64,000 nucleotides of DNA from a virus (taxonomy: Duplodnaviria > Heunggongvirae > Uroviricota > Caudoviricetes): positions 31,745 through 95,744 of IMG/VR virus record IMGVR_UViG_3300028591_000080; one strand, 5' to 3'. How positions within the stretch are numbered: position 1 is the stretch's first letter; each line of letters starts with the position of its first letter. The notes beneath the pieces are model-generated. The model was not told the DNA's origin. It worked only from the letters and a program-made list of their open reading frames with translations, and did no database searches. The position numbers and the translations under genes are program-made. Below, in pieces: positions 7,282-49,415 of the stretch.

Positions 7282-9345
7282 TTATTTATTTTTAGTAAAA
7301 TCTACTTTATCATCTAATTCTTCTGGAGTTGGAAGATCTTCTGATTCATCTAGAAAATCAACATCCTCGTTTAATGTTACTGCATCTGGGTTAGTATTAT
7401 TGAAAGATTCAGCTGTTGGTAAATCAGTAAGATTTAAGTCTAGATTTAAATCGTCACCTTCACTAGCTGTTTCACCTTCAGAAGCTGGTGCTTCGTTAGT
7501 TCCACCAGCCTCACCTGTACCACCAGGAACATTTGCTGGCTCGGCATTAGCAGCTTCACCATTAGCAGCATCTAGAGCAGCTTGTTTAGCTTCCTCTTCT
7601 TTTTGTTTCTTAGCTTCAGCTTCAGCAGCTTTTGCTAATTTAATTTCTTCGTCTAGTACTTGAAGAATTTCATCTTCACCATAATCAACCATCTTATATA
7701 AATTCTTTAAGATAATTAATCTACTACTCTTTGTTTCAACATCTTGGAATAAAGCATTAGCAGTTGATACAGCATTTAAACGATTTGTTAATTTTTCTCT
7801 ATAATTAAGTTCTTCTTGAGAAACTGGAGGTCTCATCTTAATAGTATATCTATGTACATAAGATTTTAAACCTTTTTTAATACAATATAAATCTACTGCT
7901 GTATTAATACCTTGAATTAAAGCATTTTGAACTTGAGAAACTTTCTTTTGGAAAATTGTTGAAGTAATAGTTAATGCAGTACCACCATTGAATCCAGCAC
8001 CATCTTCAGTTAATCCAAAATATTGTTTAGGAATACCAAATGCACCGTAGAATCTATCATTCCATTTATCTAAGTCAGTTAAATTCTTTGGATCATAATC
8101 TCCACCTACAGTATCAACTGTGATAGCACCTTTACCATTCTTAGTATTATTATAAATCCAGTTTTCGATTGGACCTGGGCTATTATAATCTGAAGCATTT
8201 TTACCACTTAAGAAAGCACGTTTTTGTTCAAACATATCTTTTACTTGGTGTAATAATTGATTAGCTTTAGTTCTATCCATATTAGCTGTTTCAATAGAAA
8301 CAATTCTAAATACTGATGAACGAGTTAATCTTGCAAGTAATAATGCTGATTCAATAAGAGTTTTTTCTCTCCAAATCTTATAAACATCATAGAATAATGA
8401 TTTTCCTCTAATAACATCAAAAGCATAAGTTGTTGATTTTAAATTTGAACGATTCTTAGCATTCTTATCTTTAATGTCAGGTTCCATTATTAAATCAATA
8501 GTTTCTGGGAATCTTGATTGACCATCAGATAGATAAATATGAATATAATCTTCAGCGTCATGAAGTATAATATCATTTGATTTAACTTTATAATTAAATG
8601 ATCCACCACCATTTAATGCATTAGAATTTAAACCAGTATTAGCAGCATATGCATCTTGATTAGCTAATTGAGTAATATCATTTGGAGTTTCGACATATCC
8701 AAAAGTAATATCATTTTGATTTAATTCAAACATAGTAGCAGGATCTGGAACTAATTTTAATCTCCAACAGAATTCATCATTAGCATTCTTTAAATCTAAT
8801 TGAATAGTCTCATTTAAATGAGATTTAGCACTATACATATTTTGAATACTTTGTGAATTAAAAATTGTATTTGAAAAGTCAGAATTTCTTAAATTTTTTA
8901 AATAAATATCACCATATTTAACAAGATTAAATGCCCATCCAAAAATATTTTTATCTACATTCATAGTATTTAATACATAATTTACGAATTTACTAATTTT
9001 TGGATCATCAGATTCAGCTCAAACAATATGACCATTATCTCCAACTTCACAAACATTTTCTGTTAAAATTCTTGCAATAGCTGAAACTGATGCATCTTGG
9101 AACATTGTGTCTAATTGACTATACATATAATCTCTTGAATTTGAAATTTGTGTAAACTTTTCAAGTTCTGAGAAATTTACTCTATCTTCTAATCCACCTA
9201 AAATTAAAATGTCTTCTAACGTTTTATTTAAATCTACATCTAATCGAGTATTATCGTTATTATTAGGAGTCGCTTGAATTAGTGTTCCTACTAATTGAGA
9301 TGCTTGTTTTTTAATTTTTTTAATTTTGTTATCATTTTCTGGCAT
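7282..9345 (-). CDS. Portal protein (T4 gp20-like); 1 in-frame TGA at 9019
   Basis: ORFs 9019..9345 and 7282..8964 join in frame via GHIV-TGA-AESDDPK. Motifs 'KYGDIYL', 'LIESALLLARLTRSS' and 'YGAFGIPK'. 687 aa with an acidic tail. Confidence 0.88.
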
Positions 9346-9361
9346 TTTATTCTCCTAATTA

Positions 9362-11476
9362 TTATATACAAATTATTCCATTAGAAATTGCTATTGAATT
9401 TATAGCATCATCATCTATTGCAGTATCATCTAGGTCTCCATAATATTTTGGATTACCATATTCATCAACTTCAATATATTTTTCTTTAGACATTACATTT
9501 AATAGATTTTTTCCAAAATCATGTTTTTCAATCTCATTTTGACTTGTATTACTTGGTTTTGAAATTTGAACAGTTGTTTCAATTGAATCACCAAAATCAA
9601 ATGAACATTTTTCACCATTTTTACTAGCTGTTCATACTGCACCACAGACTGCATCGGCTTGGTCCTTAGAACCATATTTACCATTTTCAGGGTGGTTGAT
9701 GTGTCCATCAGCTTCACGTTCCAATCCTAATAACTCTTCAGTTAATAGTTTAGCTTTGTCATACATTATGAAACGGCGTTCATAAATTGCTGTTTTAAAA
9801 TAGTGATAAGGTAAACAAACTTTCTTTTTATTTTCTAGCGATGTTGTTCTATCTACTGATAATACTTCTGTTTCAAATCCATCAGCTTTTAATTCTTGTA
9901 AAAGAGTAGCAGATTGGTGAGTATCTGATGTAATCATTTTAATATCAAATCCATTATCTTTTAACCAATTTATAAATATTCTATGCTTTATTGAACTAAT
10001 ATGTGCGCCTCTAGGATTTTTAATTGAAACTGAGAAAGCTAATTTATAAATTAACATCTGAGATTCTACACTAGATTCTTGTAAAATTAATTTTGATAAT
10101 TGACTAAAATCATTTTCGATCATTTTAGATTTATCGAATGATTCATCTCTACCAGTTATTCATACGCCTGCAATACCAGTCATGTCTCCAGACTCAGATA
10201 AGTCTAAGTGAATAAATAATGGTTTTTCTTTGTCTTTATCACTAACTCTACTTAAATCAAAGTATTCTGAATATTGATGTAAATCATCTTCTCCATCTCC
10301 AATTTCAAGTATATCATTCAAGAATGGATTTTCATAATCAGTAGTTTTTGTTTTAACTAATCTTTCACCTGAAATATATTTTAAAGATGCTGCTGTTGCA
10401 ATACCAATGATAGAACAAATTGCTTCATCAAGGTTTAATTGGAATGTATCTAAGTATCCAATTGGAACTTGTCACATTGTATAATTTTTATTTCTATATT
10501 CATCAACTAATTCTGGAGTTGCATCTAATGGTAATAATTCATTAGCAAGAACTTTATCTCCAATAGCTACCCAGAATTTTTGAGGTGAATCTTTTCTCGG
10601 GTCAACTACCCATTGAGGTTCATCTACAATTAAAGTATTTTTACTTTCATTCTTTTGTTTATTTTGAATAAATTCTTCTAGGAAAGATTGTTCACTATCT
10701 TTTGAAGATGCGATAATATTTAATGTAGGTAAGTAGGTACCACGCATGAAACGTGATTTCATACGAGCATCTACTTGAGTAATAATTTTCATCATTCTCT
10801 TCTTAGACTTAACTGGGTCTTGAACAAGAGAGAAGTTAACTTCATCTGTAAAGTTAGCAAACAAAGCACGACCTATGATCTGATTATTACTTGAAGCACA
10901 AATAATTTCAATATGTTTATCAGTAACATATCTCATATTAGTTGTACCATGCATTTCACCATGACTCATAAACCATTCACTAGCTAAAAGCATTGAATTC
11001 ATTTTATCTAATGCGACACCTCTAGCATTTTCTAATGTAATATTCATCATTGAAATACTTAATTTATCAATACTTTGCATTCCATAATATTGATATGGAT
11101 CTCTTAAACAAAGTAATCTATATAATAAATATAATAAACAAATAACTGCTATAGTTGATTTACCTAAACCGATAGCTCCTGTAAATACTATAGTATTATA
11201 TTTTGTTGAAGTATTAGTTGGAAATATATCTTCTAAACATTTTTCTCAGTATGGGAATACTGTAAACTTACCTTCAGCATCATATAATGCATTTCCTAAA
11301 TATCGTTTGTCATGTAAGAATGTATGAATATCTACTGGAAATTCGTCCCATTCCATAGATTGTAATGAATCTAAAAGTTCAGATTTTCCAGTTTTAGAAT
11401 ATTCTTTTAAGATTTGTAAAACGACTTTTTGTTCTTCAGTTGAGAGTTTATTAAATTTTTCTTGATCAAAATTCAT
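9362..11476 (-). CDS. Terminase large subunit; 4 in-frame TGA (11246, 10472, 10160, 9632)
   Basis: Reading through gives Walker A 'TGAIGLGKS', Walker B 'NFTDE', nuclease 'IHLDLS..GD' and 'SKDQADAV'. 704 aa, ends at TAA 9362. Confidence 0.9.
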
Positions 11477-32357: not shown

Positions 32358-32508
32358 GAATTTTTACGGATTCTGCACACATTTTTGCACGCATCAGACA
32401 ATTTAGCAAATAATTTAATTGAAAAATAAATTTTTAAAAAAATTAGACATAAAATTTAAGGAAAAAATAGTGTATTATAAAGTAAGTTTTAAGAAAGGAA
32501 ATTTGAAT

Positions 32509-33156
32509 ATGGCATTAACTGAAGAACAAAGATTTGACAATAAAGTTAGATATTTAGAATTATTATCAGAATTAAATTTTGATATGGAAAAAATAATTGA
32601 TTTTTTAGAAAGAATTGATTATTTTAATGGAATTTTCACATCTACTGGTTTTGGAAGTTATCCAGGTGCTCTTTGTGAAACAGCATTAAAATTATTCGAT
32701 AATATGATTTTATTACGTGATACATATAATATAGAATCAGTTACGCGTGAAGATATTATTAAAGTTGCATTATTTAGAAACTTCTATAAATGTGCTCTAT
32801 ATGAACCAATTTATAAGCAACAAATAAACCCTAACACAGGTGCTACTGAAGAAGTCTTAACATTTAAAGTTACAAATAATAGGCCAGTGTATGGTAATAA
32901 TTCTTTTGCATCATATATGCTTGCAAAACATTTTGTAGATTTTACTGATGACCAAATTTTAGCATTATGTCATGGTGGATTTAATGAACAAAGTGCTTCT
33001 GATATCTATTTAATTTATGAATCTAATCCATTAGTCTCTTTAACACATATGGCAGATGTAGCTACTTGTTATCTAGCTCCTTGGAGTGTTGAAAAGAAAG
33101 AAGAGCCTAAAAAGGAAGAAAAAGTAGAAGAAAAGAAAGAAGACAAGAATGAGTAA
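32509..33156 (+). CDS. HD-domain-like protein with degenerate HD motif
   Basis: 'YPGALCETAL', 'VALFRNFYK' and 'PLVSLTHMAD' match the HD hydrolase layout, but the metal-binding H and HD are replaced. ATG 32509 follows AAGGA. Confidence 0.55.
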   Translation: MALTEEQRFDNKVRYLELLSELNFDMEKIIDFLERIDYFNGIFTSTGFGSYPGALCETALKLFDNMILLRDTYNIESVTREDIIKVALFRNFYKCALYEPIYKQQINPNTGATEEVLTFKVTNNRPVYGNNSFASYMLAKHFVDFTDDQILALCHGGFNEQSASDIYLIYESNPLVSLTHMADVATCYLAPWSVEKKEEPKKEEKVEEKKEDKNE

Positions 33157-34201
33157 AATTTTAATATATGCTGATAATCACTTTTGTGAAAAAAGCAGTA
33201 TTGTAACTCAAAAAGGTAAATATACTACATTAAGACTAGAAAATCAATTAGAGTCACTTCAATGACTTCATGAACAAGCTGAAATTCATAATTGTTCTCA
33301 AATAATCTGTTTAGGAGACTTTTTTGATCGAACAAATTTAAACGATACTGAGGCTTCAGCGTTTATGGAAATTAAGTGGTCAAAAATTCCGATGATTTTT
33401 ATTGTTGGTAATCACGAAACACATTTTCATGATTTAACATTCCACTTATCAAGCTTACTTGAGCATAAAAATTCAAAAGGTGAATTCGATAGAGCTGTAA
33501 TTAATACTCCAACAAAATTTATTATCGATAATACTGAAATTTGTATTTTACCATATATTCCAGAGAGTGATAGACAACCATTAGTAGATTATTTTGGAAA
33601 AAGAACAGATTTAAAACGTATAATTTTTTCTCATAATGATTTAGCTGGAATTAAAATGGGTCCAATTATTTCTTCTGTTGGTTTTGAAAAAGATGAAATT
33701 GAGAAAAATTGTGATTTATTTATTAATGGTCACTTACATAATGGTATTTGGGTCACAGATAAAATTTTAAATTTAGGAAATTTAACTGGAAAAGATTTTG
33801 GTGAAGATGCATTTAAGTATTCACATAATATTTTAATCTTAGATACTGAAACTTTAAATCTTGAATTTATCGAAAATCCTTATGCATTTAATTTCTATAA
33901 GATAGATATAAATACAGAAGATGATTTTGCACAATTAGATCTAATCAAAGACAATGCGGTTGTTCAAACAAAATGTCAACATGAATTAGTAAAAACATTA
34001 AAAGAGAAATTAGAAAATAATCAAAAGATTATTGCAAAAAGAATTATAGATTCATTAAATAATATTTATGTTTCAGATGAAGAATTTAATGTTGATGACT
34101 TAGCTCTAAGTGATTATGAAAATGAATATAAGAAATTATGTAAAGCAAAGTTAGATAATAATTCAGTTCTAGAATATGAACTAGTGGAGGTCTTTAAATA
34201 A
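33149..34201 (+). CDS. SbcD/Mre11-like nuclease (T4 gp47-like); 1 in-frame TGA at 33263
   Basis: Motifs ADNH, LGDFFD, GNHE, SH and GHLH are complete only if TGA is read through; 350 aa. Confidence 0.9.
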
Positions 34202-34380
34202 TGCAAGTAAAAGATCTTGATGTAACAATTATGAATCCAGTAATTTTTAATCTAGACGAACAAAAATGGGATGAATATGACTTAACAAAATATGGTGAAT
34301 ATTATATAGTTCAGATCTTTGCAGATGAACTTGATAAAGACTACTGTGTTTGTCTAGACGTTTCTAAAAATGAATATTAA
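34201..34380 (+). CDS. Small hypothetical protein (59 aa)
   Basis: ATG overlaps the SbcD stop, GGAGG upstream; MQVKDLDV...NEY*. Confidence 0.6.
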   Translation: MQVKDLDVTIMNPVIFNLDEQKWDEYDLTKYGEYYIVQIFADELDKDYCVCLDVSKNEY

Positions 34381-34391
34381 TAGGAGGCTTT

Positions 34392-35243
34392 ATGTCACAG
34401 GCAGATAGATATTTTATTCAAGAATATAGTAAATTAATTAATGAAGGTTTTTCAGATAAAGATTTTGAAGTAAGACCTAAGTGGGAAGACGGAACTCCAG
34501 CCCATACTACAAAAATTTTCGGAGTTGTAAGAACTTATGATCTAGAAAAAGAATTCCCAATCCTAACATTAAGAACTCAATCTTTTAAAACAGCTGTTCG
34601 AGAGATTTTATGGTTATTCAGAGATAAATCAAATAATATTAATGATTTAAATGCACACATTTGGGATCAATGGGCAGATGAAAAAGGTTCAATTGGTAAA
34701 GCTTATGGTTATCAATTAGGTAAGAAATATGTTTATAATGATAATGGTACTTATCAATTTATGGATCAAGTTGAACATCTTATCTATAAGTTAAAAAATT
34801 CCCCTATGGACCGTAGAATGATTGTCACAATGTGGAATCCATCAGAAGAATTAGAAATGCATTTAGCTCCATGTTGTTATGAAACATTATGGGACGTAAC
34901 AGATGGTAAATTAAATATGACTTTAATTCAAAGATCTGGAGATTTAGTTGCTGCTGCAGGTGCTGGTGGCTTTAATGATATTGAATATGCTTTATTAGTT
35001 CATATGGTAGCTAGAGAATGTAATTTAATACCAGGAAAATTTATTCATTATATTAATAATCTACATATCTACGATAGACATATGGATTTAATGCCTAAGA
35101 TTGCATTTAATACTAAATATCCGGCTCCAACTTTATGGATTAACCAAGAAAAGACTTCAATTAAAGATATGACTGAAAACGATTTTAAATTAATTGATTA
35201 TAAGTCGACAAAATTAGAAGAAAAAATTGAAATAGCAGTTTAA
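34392..35243 (+). CDS. thyA: Thymidylate synthase
   Basis: 'IWDQWAD', 'GKAYGYQ', catalytic 'LAPC', 'QRSGD', 'FN' and 'HIYDRH'. Confidence 0.93.
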   Translation: MSQADRYFIQEYSKLINEGFSDKDFEVRPKWEDGTPAHTTKIFGVVRTYDLEKEFPILTLRTQSFKTAVREILWLFRDKSNNINDLNAHIWDQWADEKGSIGKAYGYQLGKKYVYNDNGTYQFMDQVEHLIYKLKNSPMDRRMIVTMWNPSEELEMHLAPCCYETLWDVTDGKLNMTLIQRSGDLVAAAGAGGFNDIEYALLVHMVARECNLIPGKFIHYINNLHIYDRHMDLMPKIAFNTKYPAPTLWINQEKTSIKDMTENDFKLIDYKSTKLEEKIEIAV

Positions 35244-35249
35244 AAATCA

Positions 35250-35280
35250 TAGCTAGAACATCGTTTCTAGCTACTTTTTT
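35250..35280 (+). terminator. Intrinsic terminator
   Basis: TAGCTAGAA...TTCTAGCTA followed by a T-tract. Confidence 0.75.
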
Positions 35281-35322
35281 ATTGTATTATATACTAGAAT
35301 TAAGTAAAGAGAGGTTTATTAA

Positions 35323-36276
35323 ATGAAATTAGATCATTTAATTAAGGACAAGCGCGTCCTATTCATTCCAATTGTTTCAATGCGCAGTTATGAAACAAAT
35401 TTTTATAATGTGTTTGCTGATGGTAATATTAATCGAGTTTTATATAAGATTAAAAAGAGCAATTGTCAAGCAACTGTAACTTTACCGAAGAATTCGACAA
35501 TTAATTCAATTCAAGATTTAAATGCTTTTTGTTCTAGATTAAATCTTGATATTAATTTTGAGTTTACTGATTTTTATGGAGTAAATGCTAAAGAGACTCG
35601 AACTAATGAAGCAATTCCAAATTTACCTTATGACGATTTTGATTATATCGTTGTAGAACCAAATTATCTTTGTTTAAATTTATTAAGAACTAGACCAGAA
35701 TTATCTCGTAAAATTATCTTCTGGAATTTAGTTTCAACAACTATAAATAAAGATGTTCCATTTGTAAAAGAATATGATAAGATTAATTTTGAAATTTGTG
35801 AGAAGTGCATTACTTTCTATGCAACAAAATCTCAATTAGAATTTTATGAACGTGGGTATGTTGACTCTGATCTATTTGATGTTATGGAAGAAAAGAAAAC
35901 AATTTTCTTACCATTTAGATTATCTGATTCAGGATATCATATTCCAGAAATTAAGACTGCTTTAGAACATTTATCTAAAAAGTATAATTTTACAGTACTT
36001 TATACTGACGTTAATGATAGTGGAATTTTAACTGATTCTACTTTATATAAACGCGTAAGTTCAGACCGAGATGTTTATAATACTATTTTAAAATCTAAAC
36101 CTATTATTCCAATGCTTGAAGATATTGATGAGATTATGCATATGAGTATTTTTGAATTTAAGCATTTTGATTGTAAATTAGTTATGTTTAAACAACATAT
36201 TTTAAAGTTAGACAATGTATTATATATTAAGAACATTGATGAGTTAGAAGGTGCATTAGAAAAATGGTTAAGATAA
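35323..36276 (+). CDS. Putative glycosyltransferase (GT-B-like)
   Basis: Two Rossmann-like halves, 'IFLPFRLSD' and a C-terminal 'HMSIFEF'. First gene of the modification-type operon. Confidence 0.45.
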   Translation: MKLDHLIKDKRVLFIPIVSMRSYETNFYNVFADGNINRVLYKIKKSNCQATVTLPKNSTINSIQDLNAFCSRLNLDINFEFTDFYGVNAKETRTNEAIPNLPYDDFDYIVVEPNYLCLNLLRTRPELSRKIIFWNLVSTTINKDVPFVKEYDKINFEICEKCITFYATKSQLEFYERGYVDSDLFDVMEEKKTIFLPFRLSDSGYHIPEIKTALEHLSKKYNFTVLYTDVNDSGILTDSTLYKRVSSDRDVYNTILKSKPIIPMLEDIDEIMHMSIFEFKHFDCKLVMFKQHILKLDNVLYIKNIDELEGALEKWLR

Positions 36277-36815
36277 AAAATTTTAATTTAGATGAATGTT
36301 TTGAACATTTTGAAAAAGCTTATAAGTTAAATCAGATGAACAGATTTTCAACAGAATATCATGTTCATGACGAATCAGTATCATCTCATTCTTTTTACGT
36401 AACTTTATTTGTTATGTATTTATCTAATTATTATAATTTTGATGTAGATAAAGCAATGAAGATGGCAATGATTCACGATTTACCAGAAAGTTTTATTAGT
36501 GATTTCCCATTCCATATTAAACAAGAAAATCCAGAAATTCAACCATTCTTTGATCAGTTAGATTCAAAATATATTGAATTTTATGATAAGAATTTCTTTC
36601 CAGGTTCTAGAGAACTTATAGATGAATATAATAATAGAGAGACTTTAGAGTCATTAATTGTATATCTTTGTGATATGTTATCTAGTTGTCTATTTTGTAT
36701 AACTGAAGTAACTTTAGGTAATAATTATTTCGCTAAAAAAGCTAAGATTAAATATGATGAATGTGTTAAACGTATTCGAGATATTGAAATTAAAATAGAA
36801 CAAATGGAGGAATAG
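36264..36815 (+). CDS. HD-domain 5'-deoxynucleotidase (YfbR-like)
   Basis: 'ESVSSHSF', 'MIHDLPE' and 'YLCD'. Confidence 0.8.
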   Translation: MVKIKNFNLDECFEHFEKAYKLNQMNRFSTEYHVHDESVSSHSFYVTLFVMYLSNYYNFDVDKAMKMAMIHDLPESFISDFPFHIKQENPEIQPFFDQLDSKYIEFYDKNFFPGSRELIDEYNNRETLESLIVYLCDMLSSCLFCITEVTLGNNYFAKKAKIKYDECVKRIRDIEIKIEQMEE

Positions 36816-36816
36816 T

Positions 36817-37362
36817 ATGGAAAAGAAGAAACTAATCATTGTTGAAGGCTTTGATCGTATCGGTAAAGATACTTTTTTAAAGAAAGTTGAAGAAAAAGAA
36901 ATAGAAGGCTTAAAAGTATATATTCAAAAGAATAATCCACCTCAATATAGAAACAAAGAGGAGTTCAAAGCTTGGTTAGTTTCTTTTCTTAAAGGACAAG
37001 CTGATGAATTAATGAGTTTTGATTCTAATATTATTATGGCAAGATTATTTACATCCGATTTTGTTTATTCTTCATTATTTAATAGAACTATGTCAGTTGA
37101 TTATCCACTACAAGTTTTGCCTAAAAAATATGATATTTATCAAATTATCTTTTTATATAAATCTTATGAAGATTATTTAACTCGTTGTAAGTTTTTAAAG
37201 TGTGAAGTAGAATATTCAAAAGATGAATTTGAAAAGATTAATTATTTATATCAAAATTCATTATTTAATACTACAATGAAGACTGTAATCTTTTATAATC
37301 CAAAACGTTCTTTTAAAGAAGAACTTACAGAATTAAATAAAATATTGAAAGGAGAACGATAG
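36817..37362 (+). CDS. dNMP/thymidylate kinase-like P-loop protein
   Basis: P-loop 'IVEGFDRIGKDT' and 'ARLFTSDFVY'. Confidence 0.75.
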   Translation: MEKKKLIIVEGFDRIGKDTFLKKVEEKEIEGLKVYIQKNNPPQYRNKEEFKAWLVSFLKGQADELMSFDSNIIMARLFTSDFVYSSLFNRTMSVDYPLQVLPKKYDIYQIIFLYKSYEDYLTRCKFLKCEVEYSKDEFEKINYLYQNSLFNTTMKTVIFYNPKRSFKEELTELNKILKGER

Positions 37363-37364
37363 TA

Positions 37365-38858
37365 GTGGAAAAGAATTTAATTATTGTTGCTGGTGGACTA
37401 AACACTCGATATAAAGAATTAAGTAACTTTGCAAAAGTTATATTACCATTTATTTTAAATGATGAAACAACCACTTGTTTAAAGAATTCATATACCGTAT
37501 TTGATGATTTTAACAAATATGTCATTGTAGATTCTAAATTCTATAAACAAGTTTGCAATTATATTAAATCTAATGGTTTAAATATCACTTGTATTGAAAG
37601 TTTCGATCATACAAATTCATTTAATACTATTTATAGTTGTTTAGATAGATTACCAAATGAAAATTTATTATTTTTATGGTCAGATATTATTTTAAATACT
37701 AAAATAAACTTAACTGAATCATTAACAAATTGCATTTTCACAAAGCCTGGAAACTATAGATATATGGCAAACAAAGATGGTTTAACTAGATGTGATTCAA
37801 ATGGAAATGTTCCAGGAGTTTATTATATAAAAGATAAATCAACAATAAAAAGAACATCTAATTATGCAGATTTTGTTGAATTATTTAATGATATTGAATT
37901 TGAAACACGTCAAATTCGTACAAAATTATTAGAATTAAGAGATAAGGATGTTTATTTATCTGAATTAAAGTCAAATAGTAATTCTGAAGCTCGTGGTCGT
38001 TATTTTAATTCATTTACTGTAAATAAAGAAGAAGGTACTATCACTAAAGTTTCAGATAAGGAACATGAACATTTAATTCAAAAAGAAGTTTTATGGTATA
38101 ATAAAGTTTCAGATTTAAATATTTCACCTAAATTACTTTCTAATACTAATAATTCAATGACTATTTCTTATTTAGATGGATATAATAACTTCTATAAGGT
38201 TTTAAATGAATCAAATTCTTATTTGGTTGAAAAATTAATTAATTTATTAAGAGATATTTTTAATAAGAGTGAAAAAATTAAACCAAATGTTCAACAATTC
38301 TTTACAGATATGAAGGTTGAACTTTATGATAAGGTTTTAGATAGAATTAATTCAATAAAAGATATGTTATTGGATTATGATGAAGCGGATTTTAATAGAA
38401 CAATTAGACTAGCTTTCGCAGTAATTTGTAATCATTTTAATTCTTTAGAGGAAGCAACGACTTATTACACTACATTCCACGGAGATTTAAATGGTTCTAA
38501 CACTATGATTAGTGGAGAAGATTTTAAATTTATTGATCCAAGAGGTTATTTTGGAAAGACTGTAGGTTCTGGTCCATTATTTTATGAAATAGCTAAAGTT
38601 TATTATTGTGTATCTGGTTATGATGATTTTAATGCAAGTATTAATTATTTATATTATAATGCTCAAAATTATACTTATCCAAAACCTTTAATTAAATTAG
38701 ATATTGATCCTTATTATCGTTTAGTTGTCGGTATTATTTGGGTATGTTTAGCATCATATATCGCAGATAATATTATGAAGGTTAATATTTCATATCAATT
38801 TGGATTAAAAATGATAAAAGATGCTTTAAAATCTGTTAATAATAAATGTATATTATAA
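37365..38858 (+). CDS. NTP-transferase fused to APH/choline-kinase-like phosphotransferase
   Basis: N-terminal 'IIVAGGLNTRY...K' and 'WSD'; C-terminal 'FHGDLNGSN' and 'FIDPRG'. Confidence 0.8.
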   Translation: MEKNLIIVAGGLNTRYKELSNFAKVILPFILNDETTTCLKNSYTVFDDFNKYVIVDSKFYKQVCNYIKSNGLNITCIESFDHTNSFNTIYSCLDRLPNENLLFLWSDIILNTKINLTESLTNCIFTKPGNYRYMANKDGLTRCDSNGNVPGVYYIKDKSTIKRTSNYADFVELFNDIEFETRQIRTKLLELRDKDVYLSELKSNSNSEARGRYFNSFTVNKEEGTITKVSDKEHEHLIQKEVLWYNKVSDLNISPKLLSNTNNSMTISYLDGYNNFYKVLNESNSYLVEKLINLLRDIFNKSEKIKPNVQQFFTDMKVELYDKVLDRINSIKDMLLDYDEADFNRTIRLAFAVICNHFNSLEEATTYYTTFHGDLNGSNTMISGEDFKFIDPRGYFGKTVGSGPLFYEIAKVYYCVSGYDDFNASINYLYYNAQNYTYPKPLIKLDIDPYYRLVVGIIWVCLASYIADNIMKVNISYQFGLKMIKDALKSVNNKCIL

Positions 38859-38883
38859 TATAAACTTAGATGAGGTGTAAAAT

Positions 38884-39972
38884 ATGATAGAATACAAATT
38901 AGGATGTAACTTCGATATGAAGTTATTAGATGAAATTATTGAATTAAATAAGATTAATCCAGAAGTTCAAATTACAGAAGTTTATGGTAGTGATAGAGCT
39001 CATGCAGCTTTAACTGCAAGACCTGAATTTAGAGTACAAGATATTTCAGCTGAATATTTTGAAGAGTTCGTAAAGAAAGCAAAGGAAAATGGTATTAATT
39101 TTAATTATACTATGAACTCAATTTATCCATATGGTTCTAAAGTTCAAATTGCTTATCATGAACAAGAAATTATTGATTTTGTACATTGGTTAGAGAGAAT
39201 TGGTGTTTATAGAATCACTATTGCTAATCCAATTATGCTTGAGATTATTAGAAATAAAGCTCATTCAAATATTGAAATTGAATTATCTACAATTGCTCAT
39301 ATTGATGCTGTAACTCAAATTAAGTATTACCATGATGTTTACAAAGTAAATAAGTTCTGTTGTAATTTAAATAAGAATAGAAACTTTAAATTCTTAAAGG
39401 CTGCTGCAGACTATTGTAATAAGAATAATATTATCTTTGAATTAATGGCAAATGAATTCTGTGCTGTTGCTGGTAATGGTTATACAACACATTGTATTTA
39501 TAGAGATTCTTGTTATATGTGTCATGCAACTAACCATACTAGAGAAGATGCGATGTTATTAGATGAATATCCAATGAAATTCTGTACTCAATCTAGATCT
39601 AAGGATATTGTAACTTGGATTCGTTCTCGTTGGATTAGACCAGAAGATATTAAGAAGTATCATGCAATTGGAATTAATCACTTTAAAGTAACTGGTAGAA
39701 CTGGAACAACTGAATATATTACTAAGATTGCAAGAGCATATATTACTGAGAATTTTGAAGGTAATTTAATTGAATTATGGAAGCCACTTGAATCTATTAC
39801 AGATGGAAAGACTGAGGCTGAACATGATCCATTATTCTATATTGATAATAAGAAATTAGATGGTTTTATTGATTTCTTCATTAATACAGAACATAATTGT
39901 GATGATTATGTGTGTGGTGAGACTTGTACTTACTGTCATAAGTTCTTCGATGAACACATTAAAGAGGCTTAA
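38884..39972 (+). CDS. Peptidase U32 family protein (Fe-S hydroxylase-type)
   Basis: 'FNYTMN', 'LMANEFC', Cys cluster, 'WIRPEDI' and 'FKVTGR'. Confidence 0.85.
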   Translation: MIEYKLGCNFDMKLLDEIIELNKINPEVQITEVYGSDRAHAALTARPEFRVQDISAEYFEEFVKKAKENGINFNYTMNSIYPYGSKVQIAYHEQEIIDFVHWLERIGVYRITIANPIMLEIIRNKAHSNIEIELSTIAHIDAVTQIKYYHDVYKVNKFCCNLNKNRNFKFLKAAADYCNKNNIIFELMANEFCAVAGNGYTTHCIYRDSCYMCHATNHTREDAMLLDEYPMKFCTQSRSKDIVTWIRSRWIRPEDIKKYHAIGINHFKVTGRTGTTEYITKIARAYITENFEGNLIELWKPLESITDGKTEAEHDPLFYIDNKKLDGFIDFFINTEHNCDDYVCGETCTYCHKFFDEHIKEA

Positions 39973-39984
39973 TGTCTCTTTTTT
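39961..39984 (+). terminator. Intrinsic terminator
   Basis: AAAGAGGC-ttaat-GTCTCTTT followed by a T-tract. Confidence 0.7.
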
Positions 39985-39988
39985 ATTT

Positions 39989-39998
39989 TGCTAAATTA
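39989..39998 (+). promoter_or_regulatory. TGCTAAATTA motif (putative late promoter), the only plus-strand copy I found
   Basis: Exact copy 38 nt upstream of ATG 40036. Confidence 0.6.
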
Positions 39999-40035
39999 TA
40001 TACATATTATATTTTATAGATCGCGAGATACTATT

Positions 40036-41643
40036 ATGAAATTTGTAGAACAAGAAGAAAATACAAGTGATTTTTTAGATGATCAATTACTAAAATATGA
40101 AGACGTTTTTAATGCATTTGAAGCTATTTTTAAAAATGGTGAATTTGCATGGACTGGATCGAGTGAAAATCCAGCTTCTCGAACAAAATCTGGACATGAT
40201 TTAATGCAAGTTCCTGAAGAAATAGCAAAAAAGATAAAAACACTTGCTCAAACAATCCCAAATAGACCTCCATTTAATAATATGGAATGGTGGAAACGTT
40301 TTCAATTTTTATATAACGCTTATATCGTCGAATCAAAATTATTAAATGCTTTTGAAACTAAACTAAGTTCTTTAGGAAAATGTTTTTATGGAGATGCTGT
40401 TTATAATCAATTAGCAAATCCAAATTCTGATTCAAACTTAGATAATGATTCAAAAAACAATACTCATACAATTTTTGGAAACACAAAAACTTATGGTGTT
40501 CCAGATCTAGTTTTTGTTGATACAGATACAATAAAAAATGAAACAAGAAGATTATGAGTTGAAGTTAAGATGGTTGGAAATAAAGCCGACCTCAAAGCAA
40601 CTAAATTACCAATGCATTTACGTGCATTAAGTAGTAAAACTAACTTAAAAAATGATGTAATTATTGCTTTAGGATTTATATTAAAAGATAGTAAGAGTAA
40701 TCCATTTACTTTAGTTTGAAGATGCGCATTACAGAATGAAAATGGAACTGGCTATTCTTGGAAAAATTTTTTCGAATGTCCTGACTTAGATATAAAACAA
40801 AAAATTAATCAAATTGAACAGGTCGCTGAGGCTGAAAAAGAAAATATTTATAGATCAATCCTAAAATTTGAACTAAAAAACCCAGATGAAGTTAAAGATA
40901 CAGACCTTTTAGGAATGTATAAAGTGTCTGATGTTTATGACCTTAAATATAAAGATAAAACTGAAGAAGAAATTTCTAAAAATAATGATTTAGAAGACTT
41001 AACAGAAGAATACTGGAATAAGTTAGATATATCTAAAGCTTTAACTAATCAAGATGATTGTATCGATAAAATTAAGTCTTTCTATGGTTATGATGGAGAT
41101 ATTACTACTGGTGGTTTCTATATAATGCCAGATGGTACTATAATTAAAACACAAAATCACGCAGATATAGATAAATATTTAATTAGAGCTGGATATATTA
41201 GTTTAAAAGATGGACAAAAACTTAATGAATTAGACTATGGTGATGGAAGTCAGTTTATGGATGCAATAAATTGTGTTCGTATTAGACGTCGTGGTGGTAA
41301 AGATTCTTGGATCCTTCCTTACTGTGTACTTCCTAATAATAATTTAACAACTACTCAATATAATGTTTTAGAATATTGGCTAGAACAAGTTTTAAATAAG
41401 TCACGAGAAGTTCAAGTAAGTACTCAAACAGAACAAAGTAAAGTCTATAAAGCTTGAGATGGTTATACAGCTCAAGATATTATAGATTCAATTAAAATGT
41501 TTTATCGTTCTAAATTCTTAGAAGAGCTAGGTAAAAAACCTAATTATGATTTTATTTTTGATGATTTAATTAATGAAGATTTAGATAATACAGATTACGA
41601 ATTAGAAAAAGATTTAAGCAAAGGTTATTTAGATCAATTTTAA
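40036..41643 (+). CDS. PD-(D/E)xK nuclease-domain protein with C-terminal accessory domain; 3 in-frame TGA (40555, 40717, 41455)
   Basis: 'VPDLVF...RRL-TGA-VEVK'. All segments are in frame to TAA 41643; 535 aa. Confidence 0.7.
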
Positions 41644-41690: not shown

Positions 41691-41738
41691 TATTGTATTA
41701 TTTAATGTATATTAAAATAAAATATGAAAGGATTTAAT

Positions 41739-42290
41739 ATGGTAGAATTTTTATTAACAAATGAATATCAAGTTAAGGAACCTAAGTTCGAATTTCCAGC
41801 TAATGCTGGTATAGATGGCTTTATTCCTGCTAACACTAAGGAATTTAGAGCAAAGTTATTTGAGAAAAATCCAAAATTATTTCTAAATGAGGCTAGTGAA
41901 GTACCAGATAATACTTCTTATTTTACTTTAGCCACTGGTGAAATTACTATTGCACCACATTCTGATTTATTAATCCCATCTGGATTATATATGAAGATTC
42001 CAAGTGATTCAGCTTTAATCGATTTTAATAAGTCTGGTATCGCAACTAAGAAGAAATTAGTTGTTGGAGCTTGTATTATTGATTATTCTTATCAAGGAAT
42101 AATTCATTATCATGTAATTAATACTTCAGATGAGTATCAAACAATTAAATGTGATGAAAAAATCATGCAAATGGTAGAAGTAAAGATTGGTAATGGCGCA
42201 AAAGTTTATTCTGGATTAACTCCAGATGAGTTCTTTACTGAAAAGTCTTCAAGAGGCGATGGTGGATTTGGAAGTACTGGACTAAATTAA
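41739..42290 (+). CDS. dut: Trimeric dUTPase
   Basis: 'AGID', 'KSG', 'IIDYSYQG' and 'RGDGGFGSTG'. Confidence 0.92.
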   Translation: MVEFLLTNEYQVKEPKFEFPANAGIDGFIPANTKEFRAKLFEKNPKLFLNEASEVPDNTSYFTLATGEITIAPHSDLLIPSGLYMKIPSDSALIDFNKSGIATKKKLVVGACIIDYSYQGIIHYHVINTSDEYQTIKCDEKIMQMVEVKIGNGAKVYSGLTPDEFFTEKSSRGDGGFGSTGLN

Positions 42291-46372: not shown

Positions 46373-48217
46373 ATGGATATTTTAGGATTATTTGATGATA
46401 TAGATCTAAATAAAAATAAGAAAAAATCTATTAACGATTTATTAGCTTTAATTAAAGCAAAAGAAGCTACTGAATCTGATATAAAAACTGTATTAAAATC
46501 TAATAAAATCTCTATTGATGAAAGAATTTCAATTATTCATGAACGTGTTTTAAAAGTTTTAGGAAAACAAAAGAAAAATATTGTTGTTATCTCAGATAAA
46601 ACTGAATTTCATAATTATATTCTTGAAGCTTGTAAGGTTGGTGTATTAGCTGTCGATACCGAAACTAATAACTCATTGGATCCAATTACTTGTAAAATAA
46701 TTGGTTTATGTTTACATTATCCAGGCGGTAAACAAGCATATATTCCTATTAACCACAGAGACCCACATACAAAAAAGCGTTTAGACTGGCAATTAACGGA
46801 AAAAGATATTGCTGATGAATTTAATTTCTTAGCTGAATTACGTTCTAAATGGCAACCAGAATTTACTGCTCCATCTCAAGTTGAAACACAACAATATTTA
46901 GAATATTGGATTGAACATAAATTAAAAAGAAATGAAGATGTTCCATGTCCATTAATTGTTATGGCTAATGGTAAATTCGATAGAGAAGTTATTTATTGTA
47001 CTTGTGGAGTATTAGTTCCAGTCGATTACGATACTCAACTTGCAGCAAGATTAATCGATGAGAATGATTTAGCAGGTTTGAAATACTTATATACTAAGTT
47101 TATTGATAAAACACAGTCTAAATATAATCTAGAAGGTTTATATTTAAATACTTTCTATGCTGATTCTGATCCAAATATTTTTGCATTATACGCTGCGACA
47201 GATGCATTAATGACAAATAAAGTTTGTGAATTCCAATTAAAAACTTTATTAGCTGAAGGAAACGAGCGTTTATTTAAATTATTTACAAGAGTAGAAATGA
47301 ATATATTATTAGCAACAGCAGCTCAAGAATTAGTTGGAATTAAAGTTGATGAAGTATACGGTAAAATGTTAAAGAAGAAATATACTAGATTAGTAGAACA
47401 ATTGGATGAAAAGGTTGAAGTTGAAATGGCCCAATATAAACCACTAATTGACCAATGGAGATTAACTCCAGAAGCTAATGAAAAGACTATTGTATATGTA
47501 CCAAAGAAAACAAAATTATCTTTAAGTGATATTAAGAAAAAATATCCAAATGTTGATGAAGAAGGTAATAGATTTAAATATGGTGCAACTAAATCTGAAC
47601 AATTAAACTGGCCAATTCCATTAAGTTCTCCAGTTCAATTATCTATTTTATTATATGACGTCTTAAAAATGCCAGTTGTGGATAAAGAAAATCCTCGTGG
47701 TACTGGTGGTGATATTCTAGAAGAAATGAATGAATTAAAACCTACAAAATTAATTGGTTATATTCTAGAACGTCGTGGTTATATGAAATTAATTTCAACT
47801 TATATTGATACTATTCCAATCTTATGTAAGCATTGGCCAGATGGTCGTATTAGATTCCACTTAAATCAATTAGGAACTGATACAGGAAGATTTTCTTCTG
47901 GTGGTGATATTGCTTATGTGGATAATTATGGAACTGATGAAGAGGAAAGAGTAGAAGTTCCTGGAATTAATATTCAGAATATTCCAAGTGGTAGTACAAA
48001 TATTAGAACATTATTTGTTGGTGAAACTACTTATGGTGAAAAAGATTTTACAGATAATTTTGAAATTAATGAATATGAAGAATTAGAAACAAATAATGGT
48101 TATAAATATTGTAAAGATTTAACTCAGGATGATTTATTAGTTACAGATGAGGGTTTATTCAAGATTAAAGAAATAAGCTATTCTAAACAAAATAAGACTT
48201 ATTCTATAAGTATTTAG
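46373..48217 (+). CDS. polA: Family A DNA polymerase, N-terminal half (3'-5' exonuclease plus thumb), with Hint-like C-terminal tail
   Basis: ExoI 'VDTET', ExoII 'NGKFD', ExoIII 'YAATD', 'TGRFSS' and 'NIQNIP'. Ends at TAG. Confidence 0.9.
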   Translation: MDILGLFDDIDLNKNKKKSINDLLALIKAKEATESDIKTVLKSNKISIDERISIIHERVLKVLGKQKKNIVVISDKTEFHNYILEACKVGVLAVDTETNNSLDPITCKIIGLCLHYPGGKQAYIPINHRDPHTKKRLDWQLTEKDIADEFNFLAELRSKWQPEFTAPSQVETQQYLEYWIEHKLKRNEDVPCPLIVMANGKFDREVIYCTCGVLVPVDYDTQLAARLIDENDLAGLKYLYTKFIDKTQSKYNLEGLYLNTFYADSDPNIFALYAATDALMTNKVCEFQLKTLLAEGNERLFKLFTRVEMNILLATAAQELVGIKVDEVYGKMLKKKYTRLVEQLDEKVEVEMAQYKPLIDQWRLTPEANEKTIVYVPKKTKLSLSDIKKKYPNVDEEGNRFKYGATKSEQLNWPIPLSSPVQLSILLYDVLKMPVVDKENPRGTGGDILEEMNELKPTKLIGYILERRGYMKLISTYIDTIPILCKHWPDGRIRFHLNQLGTDTGRFSSGGDIAYVDNYGTDEEERVEVPGINIQNIPSGSTNIRTLFVGETTYGEKDFTDNFEINEYEELETNNGYKYCKDLTQDDLLVTDEGLFKIKEISYSKQNKTYSISI

Positions 48218-48227
48218 GAGAGGTATT

Positions 48228-49415
48228 ATGAAGATTAAAACAAGAATTAGACGAAAAATCGTAGGTTCAGACTTCTCAGCTCAAGAACCTCGTTTAACAT
48301 GTCACTTATCTGGTGAGGAAAAAATGTTAAATGCATACTTAGAAGGTAAAGACTTATATGCTGTTATTTCTGCTGGTGCTTTAAAGAATAATTATGAAGA
48401 TAATCTTGAATTTTATCCTGAAGGTACTGAAATAGAAATAGATGGAAAGAAAATTATTGCTGGACATAAAACTCATAAAAATTTACAAGGTAAAGCTAAT
48501 AGAACTATTGGTAAAAAACTTTTATTAGCATCTACTTATGGTATGGGTGCTGCAAGAGCTGGTATGACAATGGGTAAATCAAAAGAGGAAGGTCAAGAAC
48601 TACTTGATAACTTCTTCGCAGAATTCAGTAAAGTAAAAGAAGCTATTGATTATTCAAAAGAGAGTTTAAAAAAGTACGGTTATGTTGAAGACTGGTTCGG
48701 TAGACGTAGACATTTACCAAAATATTTCTTACCTAGATTCGAAATTAGGTATGAGGATCCAACTAAAAATAAAACTGAGACATTTAATCCAATTTTAGGT
48801 TGTAAAGATAGAGAATTAGTTACTGATAAAATGAAATCTTATTTAGCTAAAGCTGAAGAATGTAAAGGTGATAAAGCTTTTGAAAAGCTCCAACAACAAG
48901 CTAGAAAAGATGGTTATATTTTAATATCAAATACTGGAACTATCGCACAATGTGAAAGACAATGCTTTAACGCAAGAATTCAAGGTGGTGCTGCTACTTT
49001 AACAAAGATAGCAATGGTAAATATTTATTTTGATGAAAAATTAAAAGAATATGGTGCTAGATTAGTTTGTTCAGTACATGATGAAATATTAGTTGAATGT
49101 CTAGACTTCTATAATAAAGAAGTAGAAGAAAGATTACCACAAATTATGATTGATTCAGCTAAACCTTATATGAAAGTTCCAATGAGTTGTGACCCATATA
49201 ATGTTCAACGTTGGTATGGTGATGAGTTAGCTAACCATATTTTAGATGATTTTAAGAAATTAGAGTCTAAAGGTAAGTCTTTCGAAGAAGCAAAAGATAT
49301 TATCCTTGAAGAAAATTGTGAATTACCTAAACAAGCAGTAATAGATGTTTTAACTAATAAAAAAGATGTTATTGAATGGGATCCAGATGACCCTAAAGTT
49401 TGGGAAGACAAATAA
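48228..49415 (+). CDS. polA: Family A DNA polymerase, C-terminal half (motifs A, B, C)
   Basis: 'DFSAQEPR', 'R...K...LASTYG', 'IQGGAA' and 'VHDE'. Own GGAGAGG RBS and a different frame from the N-half. Confidence 0.9.
   Translation: MKIKTRIRRKIVGSDFSAQEPRLTCHLSGEEKMLNAYLEGKDLYAVISAGALKNNYEDNLEFYPEGTEIEIDGKKIIAGHKTHKNLQGKANRTIGKKLLLASTYGMGAARAGMTMGKSKEEGQELLDNFFAEFSKVKEAIDYSKESLKKYGYVEDWFGRRRHLPKYFLPRFEIRYEDPTKNKTETFNPILGCKDRELVTDKMKSYLAKAEECKGDKAFEKLQQQARKDGYILISNTGTIAQCERQCFNARIQGGAATLTKIAMVNIYFDEKLKEYGARLVCSVHDEILVECLDFYNKEVEERLPQIMIDSAKPYMKVPMSCDPYNVQRWYGDELANHILDDFKKLESKGKSFEEAKDIILEENCELPKQAVIDVLTNKKDVIEWDPDDPKVWEDK

Follow-up and report, generated by a model that had tools for sequence, protein, structure and literature searches.

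A U32-family protein as the putative oxygen-independent hydroxylase of a proposed glycosylated 5-hydroxycytosine pathway in a ruminant-gut phage

Introduction

In this paper we describe a compact five-gene operon in a 64,000-nucleotide stretch of phage DNA (hereafter the window), which comprises bases 31745-95744 of the IMG/VR virus record IMGVR_UViG_3300028591_000080 (230,252 bp, GC 28%, CheckV completeness 100%). We propose that the operon encodes a form of the pathway to glycosylated 5-hydroxycytosine (5hoC) that works without oxygen, in which a protein of the U32 family would act as a prephenate-dependent cytosine C5 hydroxylase. Homologies, absences, gene associations and habitat together make this the probable interpretation. 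The kind of system is already known; its U32-based, ThyA-less form and the role assigned to U32 are new as far as the searchable literature goes.

The precedent comes from phages RB69 and DLP3, in which cytosine is replaced by arabinosylated 5-hydroxycytosine (Lee et al., PMC13326640). In these phages a flavin-binding ThyA homologue, the 5-hydroxy-dCMP (5hodCMP) synthase, installs the 5-hydroxyl on dCMP, an enzyme whose use of molecular oxygen (O2) was demonstrated by 18O2 labelling and whose signature consists of N177D, L143E and the diagnostic D169N (PMC13326640). Further genes in the clusters of both phages encode a thymidylate-kinase-like kinase, a first glycosyltransferase (GT), a bifunctional AfhE-type enzyme (arabinose-5-phosphate (A5P) kinase and NDP-arabinose pyrophosphorylase), an AfhF-type HAD phosphatase and an A5P isomerase, and a U32 protein (gp50) is present in RB69 and not in DLP3 (PMC13326640). 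Experiments could not decide whether the first sugar joins the mononucleotide or DNA (PMC13326640). Among the relatives of this U32 protein, UbiU/V take their oxygen from prephenate, which is also required when ho5C2501 is formed with RlhA and ho5U34 with TrhP (PMC10990095).

Results

The U32 protein and its relatives

By sequence, the membership of the last operon product in the U32 family is solid. It matches PF01136 (E 2.8e-9; score 37.1 bits, cut-off 22.4) and phrog_5757 (E 1.8e-133), is 50% identical to the U32 protein of 222 Straboviridae records and is a homologue of RB69 gp50. Its AF2 (AlphaFold2) model has a pLDDT of 89.9 and its top solved match in Foldseek is the U32 protein 5d88; a sequence search of the PDB gave a chance match only. 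The subfamily is sizeable and strongly conserved: among representatives of clusters at 50% identity, at least 1673 match it at E <= 1e-3 and 457 do so at E <= 1e-30, in phages that span about 41 to 294 kb.

An alignment of 122 subfamily members, compared by hhalign with a profile built from the three E. coli proteins UbiU, TrhP and RlhA, gave a significant match (Prob 98.9, E 1.6e-17), whereas a 20-sequence alignment was too weak against the single E. coli proteins. In the larger alignment C193, C210 and C234 fall on C169, C176 and C193 of UbiU, and 'FKVTGR' falls on 'KIEGR'; the three cysteines are conserved in 99%, 61% and 100% of the 122 representatives, respectively. The phage protein shares with RlhA (YdcP) and TrhP (YegQ) the PF01136 TIM-barrel, conserved cysteine positions (three of the Fe-S motif), the expected pyrimidine C5 hydroxyl and a genomic link to prephenate. 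Unlike them, it belongs to a subfamily of about 360 aa with about 17% identity to them, has a C-terminal CX4CX3CX2C motif of its own (residues 339-351, 94-96% conserved) in the absence of their CX3C pair, and presumably acts on a deoxynucleotide or DNA and not on RNA. With UbiU/UbiV (PMC10990095) it has in common the three aligned Fe-S ligands and the proposed position of an O2-free enzyme that doubles for or replaces an O2-dependent flavin hydroxylase; it differs from them in its presumed substrate, a nucleotide rather than a prenylphenol, and in being a single protein, not a heterodimer with UbiT.

ThyA and the missing 5hodCMP synthase

A search of the whole 230-kb genome found no second ThyA homologue, which upholds the statement of the initial annotation, made from the letters of the window without database searches, that no dCMP-specific paralogue is visible. 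The one ThyA of the genome has B. subtilis ThyA as its nearest solved relative (1b02; E 6e-67, 45% identity) and, aligned to it, retains 'HLAPCC' (L143, C146), 'QRSGD' (D169) and 'GGFND' (N177), the last being the dUMP-type Asn that had been noted earlier. Its identity to the 5hodCMP synthases of Bas46, DLP3 and PspYZU05 is about 23%, and the synthase substitutions D169N, N177D and L143D/E are all missing from it. Judged by these residues, it is a canonical dTMP-making enzyme and not a 5-hydroxy-dCMP synthase. This creates an annotation hazard, as a canonical ThyA stands where a 5hodCMP synthase is expected and might readily be mislabelled. No Tet_JBP domain was found in the genome, and the ThyA and Tet_JBP searches left no hydroxylase candidate besides U32. 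That the host is Gram-positive is a guess, its sole basis being the 45% identity to the B. subtilis enzyme.

Gene associations in related loci

We retrieved 29 IMG/VR loci with a U32-homologue profile and compared them by local BLAST and clustering. A ThyA-family gene lay within 10 kb of U32 in none of the 29, and PF00303 had no match in any of the 14 whole related viral records searched, all of them with the core of U32, GT and kinase. Seven of these records are at least 91% complete: four at 100% (164 kb, 294 kb and two of 48.9 kb, with terminal repeats in the 294-kb record and in one of the 48.9-kb records), two at 98% (128 kb and 49.3 kb) and one at 91% (40.8 kb). GT1, the glycosyltransferase type of the operon, and the kinase adjoin U32 nearly always. 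The minimal layout is kinase-GT1-U32 (L010, L011, L012, L017, L018 and L035), the full layout has GT1, isomerase, AfhE, a KdsC-like HAD phosphatase and U32, and the jumbo-phage layout has U32, GT1, AfhE, HAD, a GT-like gene and the kinase. In four loci of the full layout GT1 (N-terminal) and kinase (C-terminal) are fused into one protein of 550-606 aa (L013 2594-4411, L015 5348-7000, L016 5228-7048 and L037 5228-7048). When these arrangements are set against RB69, DLP3 and RL38J1, whose core is synthase-GT1-kinase, U32 holds the place of the 5hodCMP synthase, a pattern of apparent non-orthologous replacement.

Five records of 41-49 kb have neither AfhE nor isomerase near kinase-GT1-U32, and a search of these records, four of them at least 91% complete, found no AfhE at all, albeit without a positive control. 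Given these small records without AfhE, U32 appears to co-vary with the base-side core of kinase and GT1 and not with arabinose activation.

A second association concerns chorismate mutase, the product of which is prephenate. This enzyme adjoins U32 in 11 of the 29 loci, either fused to DAHP synthase or as a stand-alone protein. The fusion, of about 350 aa, joins DAHP synthase to a type II chorismate mutase and stands beside U32 in L014, L024, L026 and L028/L029, with both Pfam domains scoring above their gathering cut-offs, and is comparable to the B. subtilis AroA type. In the jumbo-phage layout a stand-alone chorismate mutase directly follows U32, and one more related record encodes the fusion elsewhere in its genome. 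We considered whether the U32-adjoining DAHP_synth_1 domain might be a KDO8P synthase, which together with the KdsC-like phosphatase and the isomerase would make up a KDO pathway. We rejected this because the NCBIfam models for DAHP synthase match it much more strongly than those for KDO8P synthase (E 1e-48 against 1e-15) and because it forms a fusion with chorismate mutase.

These associations bear on the alternative that U32 modifies a sugar or a heterocycle, with the hydroxyl supplied by some other, unrecognised enzyme of phage or host, or with GT1 acting on a different acceptor. Published annotations point this way: RB69 gp50 is listed as a 'sugar or heterocycle reductase' in a text in which 'U32' does not occur (PMC13326640), and the BASEL annotation of its homologue Bas46 gp144 is a UDP-arabinose enzyme. 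In Straboviridae, U32 does sit among sugar genes, and direct in vitro hydroxylase activity has been demonstrated for no U32 protein (PMC10990095). However, the 41-49 kb records keep kinase-GT1-U32 with no AfhE, and DLP3 makes tri-arabinosyl-5hoC without U32, which is therefore dispensable for arabinose activation. A sugar enzyme would also leave the adjacency of chorismate mutase in 11 of the 29 loci hard to explain, and U32 is the sole hydroxylase candidate found in this genome. We consider this alternative unlikely.

Two further features of the related loci were observed. In L031 an IS605 OrfB/TnpB-type gene with a Cas12f-like TNB domain (8686-9948, +) lies between the HAD phosphatase and U32. 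Extra GT-like genes stand beside the U32 core at L011 11093-12163, L017 3156-4241 and L019 14624-15853, with weak matches to Exostosin (GT47-like, E 7.5e-6) and Glyco_trans_1_2 (E 0.003); these may add further sugars.

The other operon enzymes

Four of the five operon genes are homologues of the arabosyl-5-hydroxycytosine pathway of RB69, DLP3 and HY126. In common with the clusters of these phages and of RL38J1 (PMC13326640), the phage has GT1, the kinase, an AfhE-type enzyme, an A5P isomerase and a location in a replication/nucleotide module; RL38J1, a Rhizobium phage, has a hexosyl-5hoC system that shares the GT and kinase counterparts with the operon. With RB69 alone of the pair RB69 and DLP3, it shares the U32 protein. 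The initial annotation had named U32, nucleotidyltransferase (NTP-transferase) and kinase genes for RB69-like phages, correctly so in view of the content of the RB69 cluster.

GT1 has tblastn matches in 75 phage records, including DLP3 gp79 (ADLP3_079) and Rhizobium and Agrobacterium phages, and by blastp it matches DLP3 gp79 at E 5e-10; the GT1 proteins of Bas46 and PspYZU05 are also homologous. Its identity is about 25% to the 5hoC-type transferases and 35-40% (E down to 1e-69) to the U32-adjoining GTs of the IMG/VR loci. It matches phrog_3891 at E 1.8e-17 and no Pfam family, even at E up to 1, and is the only glycosyltransferase of its type found in the genome. Enzymes of the gp79 / gp46:47 / gp215 type are proposed to add the first sugar to 5-hydroxycytosine (PMC13326640).

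The AfhE-like protein has full-length tblastn matches, at about 30% identity, in 369 phage records, including homologues of RB69ORF052c, with blastp values of E 1e-44 (Bas46) and 3e-46 (PspYZU05) and a phrog_4098 match at E 1.2e-68; no Pfam match was obtained, even at E up to 1. Both catalytic motifs are present, 'VAGGLNTRY' in the N-terminal nucleotidyltransferase and 'HGDLNGSN' in the C-terminal sugar kinase. AfhE of phage HY126 is reported to make UDP-arabinofuranose (PMC13326640, citing He et al. 2026). Homology searches have in this way given closer identities to two products previously described in general terms as a glycosyltransferase (35323-36276), now a DLP3 gp79-type GT1, and as an NTP-transferase/kinase fusion (37365-38858), now a full-length AfhE homologue.

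The kinase matches phrog_761 (E 6.6e-15), has the P-loop 'EGFDRIGKDT', where TIGR00041 and PF02223 also match weakly, and is 34-45% identical to the kinases of the related loci. Comparison with the Bas46 and DLP3 kinases by blastp was not significant and a sequence search of the PDB returned no match. It is the counterpart of RB69 gp45, DLP3 gp78 and RL38J1 gp214, and is presumed to phosphorylate modified dCMP.

The HD protein, of the YfbR 5'-deoxynucleotidase type, matches PF12917 (E 7e-20) and PF13023 (E 4e-18), has 2cqz and 2paq (YfbR) as its nearest solved structures and finds phrog_7076, 'dATP triphosphohydrolase', at E 1.2e-13. The genome contains no homologue of the Straboviridae HAD, nor of the KdsC-like HAD phosphatase present in 16 related loci, and the HD protein is the sole phosphatase within the operon. 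Probably, it replaces the HAD AfhF and removes the 5-phosphate of arabinofuranose-1,5-bisphosphate. Alternatively, it could serve in the clearance of canonical dCMP or dCTP, since its best PHROG is a dATP triphosphohydrolase family and the genome has no MazG-type dCTPase. A second phosphohydrolase-like protein without a Pfam match is encoded upstream of thyA (32419-33156; phrog_28876) and might likewise clear canonical dCTP.

Pathway genes elsewhere in the genome

The initial annotation had found no sugar isomerase in view; over the whole genome this does not hold, as an A5P isomerase with a SIS domain is encoded about 60 kb from the operon, outside the window (Table 1). It is about 30% identical to the isomerases of Bas46, DLP3 and PspYZU05 and matches KpsF/GutQ/KdsD models at E 4e-29 to 2e-26, below their full-length cut-offs. 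Also outside the window is a DAHP synthase of the AroFGH type, with scores above both NCBIfam cut-offs (NF009395, 371 bits against 343; TIGR00034, 271 against 173). It resembles AroF/G/H in these scores and differs from them in being phage-encoded, set among nucleotide-metabolism genes and without a chorismate mutase domain. This shikimate-pathway gene lies directly downstream of a dCMP deaminase gene and near an ATP-dependent DNA ligase gene, in a segment (L041 3598-6904) that corresponds to genome 183597-186903 on the - strand. An open frame of 627 aa whose two SIS domains are arranged as in GlmS, the glutamine-fructose-6-phosphate aminotransferase (loci L003/L004), may be another phage sugar-metabolism gene.

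The gene content allows for a different base. In this alternative U32 would be a prephenate-dependent hydroxylase of a uracil nucleotide or another base, giving for instance 5-hydroxyuracil, and the sugar would be carried on a thymine-replacing base. TrhP, a U32 protein, makes ho5U (PMC10990095), the phage dCMP deaminase makes dUMP, no dCTPase was found in the genome, and the acceptor of GT1 could differ given its identity of only about 25% to the 5hoC-type transferases. Set against this, C5 of cytosine is within reach of U32 proteins, as the case of RlhA shows (PMC10990095), and all characterised homologues of GT1 and the kinase come from 5-hydroxycytosine systems. Furthermore, the canonical ThyA directly upstream of the operon and the dUTPase are equipment for normal thymidine, which to our knowledge is not typical of T-replacing phages. 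Modification of uracil or another base is thus quite unlikely in our judgement, and hydroxylation of cytosine remains our preferred interpretation.

Operon layout and genomic context

The operon is a compact unit on the + strand flanked by two terminator-like hairpins (Table 1), its five open reading frames (ORFs) being separated by gaps of at most 25 nt or overlapping, and thyA and all five ORFs share the same strand. The ORFs, motif and hairpins that the initial annotation had described for a five-gene unit with its own signal and terminator are all in place; the start it gave, 34392, belongs to thyA itself, and the operon begins at 35323. Its placement between thyA and dut is right for thyA, which adjoins, and not for dut, which is separated from the operon by a 551-aa ORF. 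Terminator-like sites number seven in the region against 1.4 expected. The motif TTGTATTAT occurs nine times in the window against 3.5 expected, with nine or more copies in 1 of 100 shuffles, and is therefore only modestly enriched; besides the copy 5' of the operon, one lies 23 nt 5' of dut.

Table 1. Features of the operon, its surroundings and related genes elsewhere in the genome (positions are those of the window unless marked as genome or L041)
Feature	Position	Strand	Evidence or remark
Phosphohydrolase-like protein	32419-33156	+	phrog_28876 'metal-dependent phosphohydrolase', E 9e-9
Neighbouring gene	33149-34201		one in-frame TGA
ThyA, predicted canonical	34392-35243	+	PF00303, E 2.6e-72
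Terminator-like hairpin then T-run, 3' of thyA	35250-35273	+	hairpin scan
TTGTATTAT motif, candidate promoter element	35282-35290	+	33 nt 5' of first operon gene
GT1 glycosyltransferase (DLP3 gp79 / RB69 gp46:47 / RL38J1 gp215 type)	35323-36276	+	homology, phrog_3891
YfbR-type HD phosphohydrolase	36264-36815	+	PF12917, PF13023
Thymidylate-kinase-like P-loop kinase	36817-37362	+	phrog_761
AfhE-like NTP-transferase/sugar kinase fusion, 497 aa	37365-38858	+	RB69ORF052c homologue
U32 Fe-S family protein	38884-39972	+	PF01136, phrog_5757
Terminator-like hairpin and T-run, overlapping U32 stop codon, operon end	39961-39981	+	hairpin scan
551-aa ORF (code 4)	39988-41643	+	three in-frame TGAs
TTGTATTAT copy near dut	41693		5' of dut
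dut	41724-42290		
Family-A DNA polymerase, first part	46373-48217		phrog_17 (629-1003)
Family-A DNA polymerase, second part	48228-49415		phrog_17 (1007-1280)
A5P isomerase	genome 3048-3635	-	SIS domain
Two-SIS frame, GlmS layout	genome 131109-132044	-	loci L003/L004
DAHP synthase, AroFGH type	genome 183597-184637	-	NF009395, TIGR00034
dCMP deaminase	L041 4642-5136	-	
ATP-dependent DNA ligase	L041 5573-6904	-	

The surroundings of the operon form a replication/nucleotide module with Mre11/Rad50-like genes, ThyA, Dut, DnaB, primase and PolA. This location bears on the possibility that the products act off DNA, in the hydroxylation of tRNA or rRNA or on a cell-surface or virion glycan. Such roles would agree with the characterised nucleic-acid U32 enzymes, which act on RNA (PMC10990095), and with the common occurrence of nucleoside diphosphate (NDP)-sugar genes and glycosyltransferases in surface-glycan pathways. 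Yet the operon lies within the replication/nucleotide-metabolism module, its closest relatives are DNA-modification clusters from phages for which the chemistry of the virion DNA was determined (PMC13326640), and it includes a conserved nucleotide kinase that certain phages have fused to GT1. We regard an action off DNA as very improbable, and a DNA precursor or DNA as the far better candidate for the target.

TGA is a sense codon in this phage genome, as checked locally with code 4. Under this code thyA and the five operon ORFs are unchanged, with zero in-frame TGAs, and two ORFs 3' of the operon are joined into the 551-aa ORF; the ORFs starting at 39988 and 40915 had no Pfam match, even at E up to 1. 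In-frame TGAs occur in this ORF and in the gene 5' of thyA (Table 1). Their absence from thyA and the operon fits early expression, before any change of code, as would be expected of a nucleotide modification that precedes replication. The family-A DNA polymerase is split over two ORFs, both of which match phrog_17.

Compared with RB69 (gp45-gp55) and DLP3 (gp76-gp83), this genome differs in lacking a D169N ThyA-type synthase, in having a single GT of the type, and in being that of an uncultured, TGA-recoded phage of 28% GC and 230 kb, known from ruminant-gut metagenomes. Specific to it are the swap of an HD phosphohydrolase for the HAD AfhF, the dispersal of the isomerase together with the presence of a DAHP synthase away from the operon, the canonical ThyA in the synthase position and the TGA-free operon.

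Habitat and host distribution

The stretch was found in gut metagenomes of sheep, cattle and other animals across several studies, and two samples besides its probable source have near-identical contigs across the operon; one of these contigs, of 4307 nt, covers 33114-37420 with 56 differences. The ruminant gut is anoxic, and an O2-dependent flavoenzyme would for this reason be of little use there. Parts of the operon are also covered by contigs assembled from RNA libraries; as carry-over of DNA is possible, these are not counted as proof of expression. Contig joints were considered as deletions and rejected, as we take their sides of 20-24 letters at 90% likeness for low-complexity cross-matches. 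At an A/G-rich low-complexity stretch (33097-33143) depth is extremely high and unrelated contigs end loosely in large numbers, which we take as a mapping artefact.

In the cultured-phage collection, phages of Enterobacterales commonly carry U32. Acinetobacter is outside the ten commonest U32 genera, though 57 Acinetobacter records carry AfhE, and the same holds for Vibrio, whose phages also carry AfhE. The pattern of hosts agrees with the idea of an O2-free enzyme and is not a clean one, because Vibrio phages also seem to be without U32.

Discussion

The comparison of the operon with characterised clusters and with its relatives in IMG/VR enables us to propose a model for the synthesis of glycosylated 5hoC without oxygen. 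In the first step, U32 would hydroxylate a deoxycytidine nucleotide, most probably dCMP, at C5 with prephenate as oxygen donor, and would stand in for the flavin/O2-dependent ThyA-type 5hodCMP synthase of RB69 and DLP3. The kinase would then take the modified nucleotide towards the triphosphate used by the phage polymerase. By homology, the A5P isomerase and the AfhE-like enzyme, together with a phosphatase for which we propose the HD protein, would produce an NDP-arabinofuranose, from which GT1 would move the sugar onto the 5-hydroxyl. Prephenate supply would be aided by the phage DAHP synthase raising shikimate flux, while the canonical ThyA, dCMP deaminase and Dut would keep thymidine synthesis normal. 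The mononucleotide is favoured as the level at which hydroxylation takes place, since a dedicated kinase is conserved in both ThyA-type and U32-type systems, and the GT1-kinase fusions suggest that the first sugar may likewise join before polymerisation, at the mononucleotide level.

The initial annotation had proposed an anaerobic route to a hydroxylated, sugar-decorated pyrimidine, and the comparative evidence favours it, both through the homology of the cluster and through the absence of the O2-type synthase. The same is true of its suggestion that U32 is the hydroxylase, given that U32 travels with the GT and kinase, adjoins chorismate mutase and occurs in a ruminant-gut phage.

Several observations weigh against this interpretation, in addition to the published annotations of RB69 gp50 and Bas46 gp144 considered above. 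Only three of the four Fe-S ligand positions are matched in the U32 alignment, and one of the three, C210, is the poorly conserved residue, possibly through an artefact of the alignment. No chorismate mutase (CM_2) was found in this genome, so that the link to prephenate rests here on the DAHP synthase and on the relatives. No dCTPase was recognised, MazG having no match in the genome, and full replacement of cytosine is thus not implied. Vibrio phages, with facultative-anaerobe hosts, carry AfhE and seem to do so without U32. Finally, neither a U32-based, ThyA-less version of the pathway nor a hydroxylase role for U32 was found in the literature searchable in full text, the publications on Thanatos and the Durham collection making no mention of U32, and other work may assign it another role.

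With these points included, we still judge the operon to be, more likely than not, an O2-free counterpart of the RB69/DLP3 type of pathway. A more far-reaching statement, that the phage U32 subfamily is the first prephenate-using, O2-free hydroxylase of a DNA precursor or of DNA, that it replaces the ThyA-type synthase and that a complete O2-free route to glycosylated 5hoC results, has in our estimation an even chance of being correct.

Glycosylated 5-hydroxycytosine in phage DNA was described only in 2025-2026, and the sole known source of its 5-hydroxyl needs molecular oxygen, which raises the question of how this hydroxyl could arise in phages of anaerobes, or in gut coliphages under anoxia. 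If our interpretation is true, U32 answers how 5hoC arises without oxygen, and a function would be provided for RB69 gp50 and about 220 homologues in cultured phages that are now annotated as 'peptidase'. Sequencing and restriction of rumen viromes would be affected as well, as such DNA would probably withstand many enzymes. More broadly, the chemistry of U32 proteins and prephenate would extend from RNA and quinones to the precursors of DNA.

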